Part shown: piece by piece, positions 12,000 through 64,000 of the stretch
How the letters are laid out: each line of letters starts with the position of its first letter
How positions within the stretch are numbered: the stretch's first letter is position 1
Program-made: the position numbers and the translations under genes
From: Octopus vulgaris
Lineage: Eukaryota
NCBI GenBank assembly: GCA_951406725.2
Contig: OX597829.1
Location: forward strand, 30,380,001 to 30,444,000
Direction: 5' to 3'
Length of the DNA: 64,000 nucleotides
Notes under the pieces: generated by a model
Database searches by the model: none
Told to the model about the DNA's origin: nothing
What the model saw: only the letters and a program-made list of their open reading frames with translations

Positions 12000-12479
12000 G
12001 AGTGACAAAGCAGTCCATTCCATCAAAGTGACACTAGGACAAATTTACGAAGCCAAGTATACCAATCATGATTACCTGTCTAATAAGGCTACACCAGGCA
12101 CATGCATCACAACCATATGTTCGTGACATGGTGATCGCATATCAAGATAAACAGCACATGACATTGCTGGTGGGGCCCAGTTATAATTTTCTTCAGGTCA
12201 AGTAGCCCATCCCCCTTGAAAGGTCCCTGAATAAGGGTTGTTTAAGGATGTTGAATGAAACACCCATGTTTCATGAGGTGAATTATTCAAACCCCAAAGA
12301 ATTCCTTTCAACACACAGCTATCATGCTCCCCCACTACTTCTGCTCATGCATGATCAGAGATGCACACATCGTCAGCCACTCAACTGGTTAAAGTCAAAC
12401 AACTGACAAACAAAGATGTGGTATTGAGAAGAATATTTGTTGTAGCCCATCATTTATACCAAGACAAAGCAATGTACAT
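12000..12479. mobile_element. Non-coding ~550-bp repeat family X, truncated copy 1, adjoining (ATT)n
   Basis: Collinear with 46458-47011; reverse complement of 13116-13595. Confidence 0.85.
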
Positions 12480-12612
12480 TATTTATATTTGACGGATATT
12501 TGTCCTCATTTTGTTTGTTGTTAACACAACATTTTGGCTGATATACCCTCCAACCTTCATCAGGTGTCTTGGGGAAATTTCGAACCTGGGTTCTCATTCC
12601 TAAGGTATTTTT

Positions 12613-12676
<64 letters not shown>

Positions 12677-12703
12677 GCTGCTGCTGCTGCTGCTGCTGTT
12701 CTT

Positions 12704-12734
<31 letters not shown>

Positions 12735-12838
12735 TTATTATTATCATTCAGGTCACTGTCTGGAATCAAACTCGGAATCTCGGGGTAAAGAGCACAGGCT
12801 ACTAACCCCAAGATTTCGAATTCAATTCCAGGCAGTGA

Positions 12839-12845
<7 letters not shown>
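12472..12845 (-). mobile_element. Stand-alone tRNA-head plus hammerhead module (family C) with inverted-duplicated head
   Basis: Reverse complement matches 25171-25405; CTGATGA at 12557-12563 (minus strand); 12747-12790 is an inverted copy of 12808-12845. Confidence 0.8.
12615..12748. repeat. Compound trinucleotide tract (TTG)n(CTG)n(TTC)n(TTA)n inside the family C element
   Basis: Directly visible; corresponds to the short (AAC/AGC)n at about 25242-25266. Confidence 0.95.
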
Positions 12846-12893
<48 letters not shown>

Positions 12894-13115
12894 TATAATG
12901 ATGATCCTTTCTATTACTGGCACAAGGCCTGAAATTTGTAGAGAGGGTTTAAGTTGTTTATATCAACCCCAGTACTCAACTGGTTTTTAATTTATCGATC
13001 CTGAAAGGGTGAAAGGCACAGTCGACTTTGGTGAAATTTGAACTTAGAACGTAAAGATGGATAAAATGCATGTTAAGCATACTACCAGCTCGTTGCCTTA
13101 ATAATGATGATGGTG

Positions 13116-19448: not shown

Positions 19449-19770
19449 GGCACATGGCTTAATGGTTAGAGTATTTGGCTCATGGTTGTAAGGTTGTGTG
19501 AGTTCGATTCCTGGCAGCATATTCTTTCCTTGAGCAAGACACTTTATTTCATATTGTTCCAGTCCATGCAGCTGGCAAAAATGAGTAGCAACTGTATTTC
19601 AAAGGACTAACCTTGGCACATTCTGCGTCATACTGAATCTCTAAGAACTATGTTAAGGGTATGCATGTCTGTGGAGTGCTTGGCCTCTTGCATGTTAATT
19701 TGATGAGCAGCCTGAACTGTTGATCAGATCAATTGGAGTACTCATTGCCATAACCAGTGGAGTGTCAGTG
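19449..19770 (+). mobile_element. tRNA-derived CORE-like SINE family P
   Basis: A box tggcttaatgg, B box gttcgattcc, ccttgagcaagacactttatttc; other copies at 33594-33905 (+) and 48410-48790 (-). Confidence 0.75.
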
Positions 19771-24384: not shown

Positions 24385-24610
24385 CTCTTTTACTTGTTTC
24401 AGTCGTTTGACTGCGGCCATGCTGGAGCACCTCCTTTAGTCGAGCAAATCGACCCTGGGACTTATTCTTTGTAAGCCTAGTACTTATTCTGTCGGTCTCT
24501 TTTGCTGAACCGCTAAGTTACAGGGATGCAAACCCACCAGCATCGGTTGTCAAATGATGCTGGGGGGGACAAACAAAGACACACAAACAAATCCACTCAC
24601 AAGGCTTATC
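24385..24610 (-). mobile_element. SINE family O, 3' part
   Basis: Reverse complement of 59250-59441. Confidence 0.75.
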
Positions 24611-24620
24611 CACTCCAATT

Positions 24621-25142
24621 ATGAAGAAAAGAGAGGATGAAACCAACAAGCTGTCCACAGTCTATCTACCCAATGTGAAAGGCCTCTCCAAAAAGATACA
24701 AAAGATATGCGGCCCATATGACATCAGGACAGTATTCAAGAGTAATACAACACTTTGCAAAAATCTCCTTTGAGTAAAACCACCAATAGAAGAGAATATG
24801 ACCAAAGACTGCTTGTACGCCATCCTATGCAGCTGTGGTAGGCTATACAAAGGTGAACATGCTGCACCCTCAAAATAAAGGTAGAGGAACATCGCAAAGC
24901 TGTGACACAAGGAAATATTGATAAATTGGGTATAGCTGATCATGTATGGAAAAAATTGAGACCACCTCCCCCTGTGGGATGAAGTTGAAATAATAGACAG
25001 AGAACACCACGGGAAAATACGAAAACTAAAAGAAGCAGCACATATGCTAGGACACAACACCCTCCTAGGCAGACCAAGTGCAGATATGGATAGCATATGG
25101 GAACCAGTATTAAGGAAGGTTAAGAAAATATTAGATTTATAA
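24621..25142 (+). pseudogene. Penelope-like element C-terminus with GIY-YIG endonuclease (disrupted)
   Basis: YLPNVKGLSKKIQKICGPYDIRTVFKS...CLYAILCSCGRLYKGE...EEHRKAV...IADHVW...WDEVEIIDREHHGKIRKLKEAAH; stops and frameshifts. Confidence 0.85.
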
Positions 25143-25170
25143 GCCCTAAAATACACTCCATAATTGCCCA

Positions 25171-25240
25171 CGGGCATATGGTGTAGTGGTTAAGAGCACG
25201 GGCTACTAACCCCAAGATCCCAACTTTGATTTCAGGCAGT
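25171..25240 (+). promoter_or_regulatory. tRNA-derived segment (Pol III A box, anticodon-like arm, degenerate B box)
   Basis: TGGTGTAGTGG at 25179-25189, then ttaagagcacgggCTACTAAcccc; B-box consensus gagttcgattcc inferred from the three copies. Confidence 0.65.
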
Positions 25241-25306
25241 GAACAACAACAGCAGCAACAACAACAGATATCTTAGGAATGAGAACCCAGGTTCAAAATT
25301 TCCCCA

Positions 25307-25354
25307 AGACACCCGATGAAAGCTGGAGGGTATATCAACCGAAACATTGTGTTA
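25307..25354 (+). ncRNA. Minimal type I hammerhead ribozyme motif (Penelope-type)
   Basis: acac-CCGATGA-a-agctg gagggtatat caacc-GAAA-catt-gtgt; consensus with the 12.5 kb copy is acacCTGATGAaggctg..cagccGAAAcgttgtgt. Confidence 0.75.
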
Positions 25355-25609
25355 ACAACAAACAAGATGAGGACAAATATCCGTCAAAAGTAAATAATGT
25401 ACATAATTCCTCATCTCTTAAATATAGTCCATGTATTATCTCCCCTTTTAGTTTTTTTTCTGTAGGAAGTAAGTAATTTTATTTTACTTTATTCTCCCCT
25501 CCTCCCTTTTTAGCAGTTTTTTTTTTCGAACTTAATATTTTTTCTTCTTGGCATCTATTTCTAGGAACTCTGTGTTCTTCCTTTTTCTTCTTGTATGTGT
25601 GGATTCATC

Positions 25610-28789: not shown

Positions 28790-29165
28790 TATGGGAGGTC
28801 TGTCTGTCTGCCATGCCCACGTGGATTAAATGATTTTTTAAGATCTAAGGCTAGATTATTGTTGAGATAGGGAAGAGATACAGTTAACGAGTGAGGTAAT
28901 AGCAATGACATGAAAAGTCGTGTCAGTGGGTGGGGGGTAGTGAGAAGGAGTTAGAGAGTGACAGGACAGTGGAGAGGGTTGAGCAGGGTGTGGTGTGGTG
29001 CTACATGGCTGATTTAAGTGGTTTGTGAAGGAAAGATGAGATGGAAGAGCATAGTGGAAGGGAAAGAAAGAGGTAGTGTTAGCAGAATACTGTGAGAGAG
29101 AGTGATAAGGGTAGTGGAGAGGGAGGATGAAGGTGCTGAGTAGGAGGATATGCAGGGCCACCCCA
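28790..29165 (-). mobile_element. Possible highly decayed Penelope GIY-YIG remnant
   Basis: Weak motifs PLSCHSLTPSH and ...KSFNPRGH, like PLE endonuclease ends (PV..HF...H; L.S..P.G.N). Confidence 0.25.
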
Positions 29166-33593: not shown

Positions 33594-33905
33594 AGAGGCA
33601 CATGGCTTAGTGGTCAAGATACTCAGCTGACAGTCATGAGTTCAATTCCCGGCAGCACATTGTGTCCTTGAGCAAGACACTTTATTTCTTGTTATTCCAG
33701 TCCACTCAGCCGGTAAAAATGAGTTGTACCTATATTTCAAAGGCCCAGCTTTGTCACATTCTGTGTCATGCTGAATCACCCTGAGAACTGCAATAAGGGT
33801 ACATGTGTCTGTGGAGTGCTCAGCCACTTGTATGTTAATTTCATAAGCAGGCTGTTCCGTTGATCGAATCAACTGGAACCCTTGTCATAACAGACAGAGT
33901 GACAC
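33594..33905 (+). mobile_element. SINE family P, head-to-head with a degraded minus copy at about 33400-33560
   Basis: tggcttagtgg, gttcaattccc, ccttgagcaagacac. Confidence 0.8.
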
Positions 33906-48409: not shown

Positions 48410-48790
48410 TGGAAGCACTCTGTCGGTTACGATGATGAGGGTTCCGGTTGACCCGAATCAACGGAACAGCCTGCTCGTGAAATTAACGTGTAAGTGGCTG
48501 AGCACTCCACATACACGTGTACCCTTAACGTAGTTCTCGGGGATATTCAGCGTGACACAGAGAGTGACAAGGCTGGCCCTTTGAAATACAGGTACAACAG
48601 AAACAGGAAGTAAGAGTGAGAGAAAGTTGTGGTGAAAGAGTACAGCAGGGATCACCACCATCCCCTGCCAGAGCCTCGTGGAGCTTTAGGTGTTTTCGCT
48701 CAATAAACACTCACAACGCCCGGTCTGGGAATCGAAACTGCGATCCTATGACCATGAGTCCGCTGCCCTAACCACTGGGCCATTGCGCCT
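48410..48790 (-). mobile_element. tRNA-derived SINE, family P variant
   Basis: Minus strand ggaggcgcaatggcccagtggttagg...gtttcgattccc; 3' part shared with 33594-33905. Confidence 0.8.
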
Positions 48791-59949: not shown

Positions 59950-60434
59950 AAACATGTACACACACCCATACATACATAAATACACAACCAAACATGCATA
60001 AATACAAACATACATATATACACTTGCATATAGAAATATACAGCCATTCATACACACACACATACATACACTTTAATACATAAAGATAGTCATAAGGCTT
60101 CTTGCATTAAAGAAGTCAGTTTTCATAGATGAATATTGTCACTGGAAAATACTCTTTTATTCTTTTACTTGTTTCACTCATTTGACTGTGGCCATGCTGG
60201 GGCACCACTTTTAGTTGAACAAATCGACCCCAGGACTTATTCTTTGTAAGTCTAGTACTTATTCTTTTGGTCTCTTTTGCCGATCTGCTAAGTTATGGGA
60301 ATGTAAACACACTAGCATTGGTTGTCAAGTGATGTTGGAGGGACGAACACAGACACACAAACATATATACACACAATAGTTTGGCCGCTTGTTTCTCTGG
60401 AGACTATCAGAATGATGCAGACACCTCTGAGAAC

Positions 60435-61700
60435 CCAATAAAGGAGGTAGCAGAGCTGAGGCCAAGAACTACAGACCTATCTCTCTGACCTCGCACATCA
60501 GCAAGGTCATGGAACGAATAGTCAGAAGAAAACTAATCGCCTTCCTTGAAGAAAATGACTTACTGCCTGACACCCAACATGGTCTCCAACCTAGAAGAAG
60601 CTGCCTGACTCAGCTCTTACAACACTATGACTGGGTGCTGAAACAGCTGCTCAAACACTCAAATGTGGAAATGATATATCTCGACTTTGCAAAGGCCTTT
60701 GATAAAGTTGATCATGGAACGATATGTCACAAACTGCATGATCTCGGCATAGTTGGAAAATTGGGAGAATGGCTTCATGACTTTCTGAAGGATAGAAGTC
60801 AGGTGGTAGTAGCCAATGGGGCCACATCCAATGACACACAAATAGTGAGCGGTGTTCCACAAGGCACTGTTTTGGGACCATTACTGTTCATAATGGCCCT
60901 CTCAGATATGCCCTCAGCCACACAGAGAGCTATGATCACAAGTTATGCAGATGATACAAAAGTCTCACAGGTAATACAAAACCCTGAAGATACTATGTAC
61001 CTGCAATGTGAGCTGGATGAAATATACAAGCGGGCTGAAACGAATAGCATGCAGTTTAATGCTGAAAAGTTTCAAGCCTTGTGCTATCAGCATGCAAAAC
61101 TAAATGCAATACCCATTAAATACACTGGACCTGCATGGATTGCAATCCCAGAGGCACAGTCAGTGCAAGACCTGGGCATTTACATGACTAATGATGCATC
61201 TTTTCATGTACATGTTGCTAAATTGGCAATGAAATGCAGGTGGCTGACCGGTTGGATTCTTAGAACTTTTAGAACAAGAGATCAGGAAACCATGATGGTC
61301 CTCTGGAGGACACTTGTCCTAAGCTACTTTGACTATTGCTCTCAACTTTGGTCACCAACCAGTATCAAATTAATCTCAAAACTTGAGGCAATCCAACAAA
61401 GCTACACGAAGAAGATAGCCTCTACACAGCATATAAACTATTGGGAAAGACTCAAGAGATTAAGACTCTATTCCTTAGAGCATAGGCGAGAAAGATATGC
61501 CATAATATACTTCGGAGAATCCTGGAAGGACTTGGCATCAAGAGTTACACAAATATTAGAACTGGGCACCACTGCATAGTGCCATGGACTCCAAATTTGC
61601 CATCAAGATGTAAGACAAGAGTAGGCAGGCTCATCAAAGCCATATGATCTCAAGCTCAAATTCATGGCTTCAACACTGACAATGTATTGATGGAGAGAAC
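60435..61700 (+). mobile_element. CR1/L2-group non-LTR retrotransposon RT region, 5'-truncated
   Basis: NYRPISLTS, QHG, YLDFAKAFDKVDH, SGVPQGTVLGP, YADD, DLG, YCSQLWSP. Confidence 0.92.
60509..61579 (+). CDS. Reverse transcriptase ORF fragment (356 aa) of the LINE; probably non-functional
   Basis: Open frame with the RT core motifs; no endonuclease domain upstream and an apparent frameshift near the end. Confidence 0.75.
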   Translation: MERIVRRKLIAFLEENDLLPDTQHGLQPRRSCLTQLLQHYDWVLKQLLKHSNVEMIYLDFAKAFDKVDHGTICHKLHDLGIVGKLGEWLHDFLKDRSQVVVANGATSNDTQIVSGVPQGTVLGPLLFIMALSDMPSATQRAMITSYADDTKVSQVIQNPEDTMYLQCELDEIYKRAETNSMQFNAEKFQALCYQHAKLNAIPIKYTGPAWIAIPEAQSVQDLGIYMTNDASFHVHVAKLAMKCRWLTGWILRTFRTRDQETMMVLWRTLVLSYFDYCSQLWSPTSIKLISKLEAIQQSYTKKIASTQHINYWERLKRLRLYSLEHRRERYAIIYFGESWKDLASRVTQILELGTTA

Positions 61701-63224: not shown

Positions 63225-64000
63225 GACCCATATCAATATGGACTAGAAGCCATTAAATTCTGGTTATTGGAATACCCCAATAAGGTCCCAGAAAGAATAA
63301 AAAAAGAATTTATCATCGAGGGCCTTAAGTTTATCCTCCAAAACAACTTTTTGAATTTTAATAATAATACCTACAGATGGCTATGAGGGACTGCAATGGG
63401 TACTGAAGTTGCCCCTACTTATGCAAACCTGATGATGGCCTATCTAGAATTAAAAAATTTATTAAGAGTCCAAATATAAATACAGCCTGTCTTTCCACAA
63501 ATACCTGTTGGAGAATTGGAAACACTACTTGGATGATTGCCTCATCCTATGGTCCCACACACTTGACCAACTCATTGATTTCAGAAACTTAATCAACAGT
63601 GTCAACAACCATATCCAATTTACAATGGAATATAGTCAAGACCAACTTCCTTTTCTTGACATTCTTATTATTAAAAAAGGCACCAACATTGAAACTGATA
63701 TCTACTACAAACCAACTGATTCCAAACAATACCTTCTGTTCACCTCCAATCACCCAAAGCACATGAAGACAAACATCCCCTTCAACCTAGCGAGAAGAAT
63801 CTGTACAATTGTCTCAAATTATAGAACATGAACTGAAAGACTCCAAGAACTAAAGGCAATTCTTCTCAAAAGACATTACCCAGCACCATTAGTTGACAAT
63901 GGAATAGAATGGGCTAAGACAATTGCTACCCAAGTCTTATGAAAACCAAAACACACTCATGGTACATTAAATAGTCTCCCATATCTCTCAACACACAATC
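63225..64000 (+). mobile_element. Penelope-like (Neptune-type) RT, disrupted, running off the window
   Basis: GLEAIKFWL...FILQNN; GTAMGTEVAPTYANL; YLDDC; LPFLD; YYKPTDSKQYL...HPKH..TNIPFNLARRI. Confidence 0.9.

Follow-up and report, generated by a model that had tools for sequence, protein, structure and literature searches.

A tRNA-like head and a minimal hammerhead in the pseudo-LTR of a Poseidon-type Penelope-like element of octopus

Anatomy of the locus and of the family

The analyzed window is a 64,000-nt stretch of the forward strand of Octopus vulgaris contig OX597829.1 (positions 30,380,001 to 30,444,000), and the coordinates below refer to it. It comes from a 2.8-Gb assembly, and the genome-wide counts given here are exact matches in that assembly. 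The copy under study occupies positions 24607–25427. Its first part (24607–25142, + strand) is the 5'-truncated and frameshifted C-terminal end of a Penelope-like element (PLE) ORF, corresponding to the GIY-YIG-type endonuclease region, as obtained by three-frame translation and homolog alignment. This part is 86% identical to a long natural copy and ends with the stop codon TAA at 25140–25142. An abundant repeat of approximately 200 bp (24400–24602), with six further matches in the window, lies directly before the truncated copy.

The further features of this copy are on the same strand. The stop codon is followed by a spacer (25143–25164), which is present in 19 of the 118 head matches, one of the 19 being a duplicate row. 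The 5' ends of copies pile up at 25165–25177, where a small palindrome is located at which many copies fold back. The tRNA-like head, the 5' leader of the element, was delimited at 25172–25242 by motifs, column majorities, and comparison with tRNAs. It counts 73 nt, with tRNA position +1 at 25172, 29 nt after the PLE stop; the window copy carries the A box at 25179–25189, a heptamer resembling an anticodon loop at 25203–25209, and a decayed B box at 25223–25233. A leader microsatellite of the type (AAC/AGC)n or (AAC/AAT)n, which varies in length between copies, extends over about 25242–25266. Natural copies identify positions 25279–25427 as the first codons of the PLE ORF, with the first in-frame ATG at 25279. 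Within them lies a minimal type I hammerhead (25309–25352; core 25313–25348, predicted cut after 25348). The PLE “tail” (25400–25427) is located between two 3' ends of the family, at window-equivalent positions of about 25400–25407 and 25431–25434, and the window copy ends approximately 7 nt before the usual long 3' end. Judging from changes in the core and stem II, the hammerhead of the window copy is predicted to be inactive.

The original prediction, made from the letters of the window, described this unit as the 3' terminus of a Penelope element with a tRNA-derived Pol III promoter upstream of a hammerhead, and every feature it listed was found in its place. Two of its descriptions need correction. 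A B-box-like sequence does exist at the position of the “second B box” (25290–25303), but it has three Ts instead of two, lacks the consensus C, and corresponds to ORF codons 4–9. Likewise, the unit does adjoin a PLE stop as a 3' terminus would, but it is also the 5' end of the element, and the ORF starts within it. A second insertion of the family is located at 12.5 kb. One of its arms (12472–12790, – strand) begins within the head, lacks the A box, includes the hammerhead, and terminates at the short 3' end; in the inverted partner arm (12784–12900, + strand), (AAT)n comes after the 3' portion of the head. The complementary hammerhead mutations described for this copy are present.

Upstream walking yielded an element of approximately 2.9 kb, in which the reverse transcriptase (RT) is followed by a C-terminal endonuclease (EN), and in longer copies the unit runs past the tail into the RT ORF. 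Natural copies have a frame that is open from the ATG at 25279 and includes the hammerhead and the tail; therefore, the head and the microsatellite constitute the 5' leader of the element, and the hammerhead and the “second B box” lie in coding sequence. The unit is the pseudo-LTR (pLTR) of an old Poseidon-type PLE, made up of the tRNA-like leader and the first ~52 ORF codons with the hammerhead inside. RT motifs are present in the natural copies, homologs match RVT_1, and the profile matches RTs, with TERT weakly among them (E 5e-4). The search of Pfam with the decayed family ORF pieces returned no match, including none to GIY-YIG. Two cysteines and two histidines of the CCHH motif were found in the alignment of the C-terminal domain; homologs at 41–43% are labeled GIY-YIG by JGI, and the closest named protein homolog is from Octopus sinensis (74%). 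The CX2-5CxxC linker between RT and EN is absent in the alignment, and the layout given for Penelope/Poseidon in PMC8557442 is likewise RT plus a C-terminal EN with no such linker. By its domain layout, the family is assigned to the EN+ PLEs and to Poseidon. Part of a second PLE family was observed at 63466–63831; this family is younger, has a cysteine linker in front of the endonuclease, and includes many copies with open frames of 776–876 aa. A LINE-type element with a 382-aa RT frame (RVT_1, E 2e-29) is located at 60431–61579.

An exact 25-mer of the hammerhead had 5,017 matches in the genome, compared with 0 for the reversed control, so the hammerhead repeat is not due to chance. Of 63 independently picked arms, 11 hold this 25-mer without change, from which the total can be put, as a rough estimate, at 29,000 arms. 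In the column majorities, both the A and B boxes are intact and in tRNA register (189 head arms), as is the minimal hammerhead core (284 hammerhead arms), the whole core being kept in 87 of the 284. The commonest letters over these 284 arms, CTGATGA...GAAACGTT, agree with the ancestral core reconstructed in the original prediction. These majorities carry the signatures of minimal PLE hammerheads, namely the core, an extra nucleotide before stem II, G10.1-C11.1, and palindromic 15.2-16.2, which the window copy itself does not. A subfamily change, found in 40 of the 284 arms, affects window-equivalent position 25317, which is N7, the single variable position of the core, and would replace Asp with Glu in the ORF. 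Copies deviate from the column majority by ~4% at non-CpG sites, and the longest open frame among 121 family matches is 569 aa. From these values, the PLE family looks old and decayed. A search started from a homolog of 66% identity revealed no sister family.

The presence of a tRNA-like head was borne out, with both boxes intact in most copies. Ungapped comparison of a well-preserved head with a host tRNA-Arg(TCG) gave 43 identities over 73 positions (z 6.6), and gapped comparison with tRNAs gave up to 49; resident SINE heads matched the PLE head at up to 50 of 73. A profile of nine host tRNAs detected six of eight family heads (best E 6e-7) and missed the window copy. ARAGORN found no tRNA in the window or in 54 loci, and no tRNA or hammerhead match to the family sequences was obtained in Rfam. 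No cloverleaf fold is predicted for the head (z +1.9), whose acceptor stem is unpaired. The tRNA likeness is moderate; the donor may have been a tRNA or a SINE. All 30 head-picked loci ran into the microsatellite, and no free SINE with the same head and another tail was detected among them; 22 of the 30, by visual inspection, reached the hammerhead region within 280 nt. The tRNA-like heads of resident SINEs are located in the window at 19451–19514, 33601–33654, and 48726–48783; the agreement at up to 50 of 73 positions comes from related heads at other loci. At two loci, L280 and L284, what seems to be another retroelement has inserted into the microsatellite and splits the (AAT)n run that follows the head.

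Ends of the copies

Copies end at two 3' sites ~30 nt apart, 79–86 and 110–113 nt past hammerhead stem II, and an inverted partner was present in 43 of 90 tail-picked insertions. Both are insertion marks of PLEs, in agreement with the proposal that the unit was copied by PLE machinery. Target-site duplications of 11–12 bp were found in 2 of 11 simple junctions. A-rich stretches follow the ends of the ORF pieces at three loci (L218, L337, and L339; ORF +847, +232, and +262, respectively); these few cases could be RNA tails.

Among the 1,942 exact matches of the tail, only 37 continue into the ORF. Thus, in the count of copies with and without the ORF that was called for at the outset, ORF-less copies form the large majority. 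The 5' ends of copies were analyzed in a first set of 150 pattern-picked loci, which provided 95 head-bearing arms. Fifty-six of these start at 25165–25177, 18 at 25178–25190, and seven further in, and 14 extend upstream. The rate at which arms stop is 0.062 per base at 25165–25177 compared with 0.002–0.003 on either side, with 0.016 at 25178–25190. Fifteen of the 56 pile-up arms, all of the fold-back class, were assigned to 25165 by rule, as the fold-back mimics upstream sequence; after removal of local fold-backs, 30 of 60 arms start at 25165–25177 (0.052 per base). A second, tail-picked set consisted of 90 arms, with 30 loci common to the first set and 60 new ones. Of the tail-picked arms reaching 25177, 21 of 26 stop by 25165, nine of the 21 having been assigned to this position by the same fold-back rule, and 5 of the 90 arms go further. 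All loci of both sets are on one contig, where they are the first of the matches listed. Randomly placed 5' breakpoints, which had been named as evidence against the original prediction, were not seen, the ends being concentrated at the head.

The pile-up is most simply read as a hard 5' end of the RNA at the head, as the positions of the copy ends suggest. Cleavage by RNase P at tRNA position +1 (25172) was considered and rejected, since the acceptor stem is unpaired and 18 of the 30 starts without fold-back precede this position. Among 30 of the 37 copies containing the ORF start, three begin at 25164–25172, and there is no case of a direct tandem reaching beyond the head on its upstream side. 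In another set of 30 loci, two have an upstream ORF end in direct tandem. Three of 53 ORF-start pieces adjoin, directly after the ORF piece, a pLTR that begins with the head, the outcome expected of a template jump after run-off at the RNA 5' end.

Transcription and origin of the short copies

The reading that we favor, with moderate confidence, is that of a Poseidon-type PLE in whose pLTR the head is a likely Pol III-type promoter, and whose short copies arose by internal priming and run-off. The RNA would begin at about 25165–25172, probably by Pol III. The PLE protein would prime reverse transcription inside the RNA, 79–86 or 110–113 nt past hammerhead stem II, as in the anole element PAc. 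With priming in the 5' pLTR, the RT would run off the 5' end of the RNA after ~270 nt and leave copies that look like SINEs; priming in the 3' pLTR, on RNA that had read through, would produce 5'-truncated ORF copies of the ordinary kind, of which 24607–25427 is an example. The template would be uncut RNA, so that the ribozyme did not set the ends of the copies. Short copies would be dead ends, as they have no ORF sequence beyond the priming site, which PAc needs; without downstream ORF RNA they could not be recopied if this requirement, borrowed here from another family, holds in the octopus element.

The position of the ends, the intact boxes, and the T runs speak for Pol III. The pile-up sits 2–14 nt before the A box, close to the start-to-A-box distance quoted for SINEs, 10–15 nt (PMC8969392). 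No shared T4 run was found along ~2.6 kb in nine long copies or in 161 alignments. In this PLE, 0 of 13–14 T3 sites are T4, compared with 7 of 21 in the second PLE family of the genome (window 63466–63831), which served as the T-run control (Fisher p 0.027). The ORFs of 21 distant PLEs contain 77 T4 runs, 29 of them in one T-rich ORF. Against Pol III, G4 runs are equally absent from the element. Three raw RNA-seq runs from another organism that carries the family showed no Pol III transcript: depth was equal on both strands, 80% of reads continued into unlike sequence, and no pile-up of starts or ends was listed for these libraries of unknown strandedness and RNA selection. This pattern fits family copies lying inside host transcripts. 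A peak of loose read ends at the head start was set aside, since a mismatch in the reference copy confounds it. Among indexed RNA runs no carrier of the family was recorded, a blank that is given no weight here.

The head likely served as the Pol III-type internal promoter of the element. The same pLTR and run-off could also have operated with a Pol II or other start, the A and B boxes being left over from the capture of a SINE or tRNA, and we regard this as an unlikely alternative. The promoter of D. virilis Penelope is LINE-like, TATA-less, and internal (PMC2377424), so Pol II could have initiated at this same position; characterized PLEs start within the pLTR by means of an internal promoter (PMC2377424, PMC8557442). 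A translatable RNA of 2.9 kb would be easier for Pol II, and the head is as near to resident SINE heads (50/73) as to tRNAs (up to 49, gapped). However, copy 5' ends lie just before the A box, both boxes remained intact in the masters although the cloverleaf was lost, and a shared T4 terminator is lacking, all of which argue for Pol III. A further proposition, that the whole 2.9-kb RNA of the coding element was made by Pol III, with a tRNA-derived promoter swapped in for a Pol II promoter, is rather unlikely in our estimate. If true, it would require cap-independent translation, perhaps after hammerhead cleavage or via the tRNA-like leader, and would show how a SINE can arise in situ out of the 5' part of the element that serves as its helper.

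Short and long copies have a common ancestry. Three linked sites (p 9e-17 and 1e-11) define a haplotype that turned up in every class of arms, at 12/51 among ORF-upstream, 10/95 among head-start, and 5/20 among ORF-downstream arms, the hammerhead-picked loci being selected against it. Non-CpG divergence is 4.2, 4.2, and 5.2% in the three classes, respectively. No private variant distinguished the 95 head-start arms from the 71 ORF-bearing arms after correction for 48 tests, in which the smallest p, 0.002, was obtained at a site tied to the 3'-end position. The shared haplotype, the absence of private variants, and the equal divergence make it likely that the short copies came from the same masters as the ORF copies. 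Thousands of SINE-looking short copies thus likely came from the PLE's own RNA and not from a separate parasite.

The original prediction had proposed for them an independent Pol III SINE that processes itself by the hammerhead and borrows the PLE RT. Such a SINE would account for the dominance of ORF-less copies that begin at the head; Sm-alpha provides a precedent, and non-autonomous PLE derivatives exist. We nevertheless consider it improbable, since no variant divides the 95 head-start from the 71 ORF-bearing arms after correction and the two kinds of copies are of the same age and have a common haplotype. In addition, the head belongs to a coding element, and the unit consists of ORF sequence in its 3' half, which does not agree with an independent SINE-like partner. 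The copy ends also lie away from the ribozyme cut site: copies span the predicted site and end 52–86 nt beyond it, and seven 5' ends were seen near it compared with 3.5 expected (p 0.07), an enrichment of at most twofold. Self-processing by the hammerhead was thus not seen, and the family does not consist of units bounded by the ribozyme cut site, as retrozymes and Sm-alpha do.

It is very improbable that the RNA had no special start and that the RT, copying a long read-through RNA, stalled or folded back at a hairpin at 25155–25184 (predicted at –10.9 kcal/mol), which could add stops and at which 43 of 118 heads fold back, with the stop rate raised also at 25178–25190 (0.016), because hammerhead stem II, which is nearly as stable (–8.1 kcal/mol), raises no stops (0.002 per base), the region beyond the loop, at 25165–25171, contains 18 of the 30 starts without fold-back, and the 5' arm of the hairpin is present in only 1 of 99 non-extending heads.

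Relation to known elements

In the anole element PAc, reverse transcription is primed within the RNA 111–118 nt past stem II on an uncut template, and ORF RNA is needed to +172 (PMC11167929). The octopus family resembles PAc in the order of the RT and the C-terminal endonuclease, in a pLTR that contains the ORF start and a hammerhead, and in a tail of 30–40 nt, and its long 3' end (110–113 nt) corresponds to the 111–118 nt of PAc (PMC11167929). Unlike PAc, for which none is described in the available text, it has a tRNA-like leader with A and B boxes, and its ATG lies 42 nt before stem II (PMC11167929). Among the minimal hammerheads of metazoan PLEs, many come from truncated elements and occur singly or as pairs on opposite strands (PMC4209133). 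The octopus motif has the same core, extra nucleotide, G10.1-C11.1, and palindromic 15.2-16.2, without any difference; the word “tRNA” is absent from that paper (PMC4209133).

A tRNA-derived Pol III unit followed by a hammerhead already has a precedent in the schistosome elements Sm-alpha and Sj-alpha, where a tRNA-derived A/B-box Pol III promoter precedes the ribozyme in high-copy repeats (PMC2770079, PMC2576457, PMC6765202). Unlike the octopus unit, however, these are non-coding, carry a canonical active ribozyme, and form multimers that are cut into units, whereas in octopus the unit forms the leading part of a coding PLE, and its ends would be set by RT priming in the proposed reading. The TRIMp3 elements Cassandra, Helenus, and Ajax likewise have a small-RNA-derived Pol III promoter in a retroelement terminal repeat (PMC10886601); they are non-autonomous LTR elements whose partners are argued to need Pol II, whereas the octopus head sits in the coding element itself. 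Animal non-LTR retrozymes are, similarly to the octopus copies, short, related to PLE pLTRs, hammerhead-bearing, and ORF-less; in contrast to the latter, they are tandem units cut from ribozyme to ribozyme (PMC7229834; bioRxiv 10.64898/2026.07.22.740005). A tRNA head or Pol III is not mentioned in the bioRxiv preprint.

While a tRNA head with a hammerhead is known from Sm-alpha, its placement inside a coding PLE appears to be new within the literature searched, in which we found no report of it. A 1994 paper reportedly describes three tRNA-derived SINEs of octopus. Transcription is known for very few PLEs. Thousands of fossil copies appear to place the RNA start on a tRNA-type promoter inside a coding PLE, and would lend genomic support to internal RT priming from the 5' pLTR, seen until now in vitro with one lizard element. 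The element is also a plausible intermediate toward Sm-alpha-like elements, and annotators should be cautious, as such 270-bp copies would be filed as SINEs.

In 79 distant PLE loci from metagenomes, 49 of which have at least 300 nt downstream, one (L389) has a loose A/B pair. In this intact distant PLE, the A/B-like pair lies between the stop codon and the hammerhead (2820–2905) and is followed by a short AAT run; with a score of 7.9 bits and no Rfam match, it is a tentative lead to a possible second tRNA-headed PLE.
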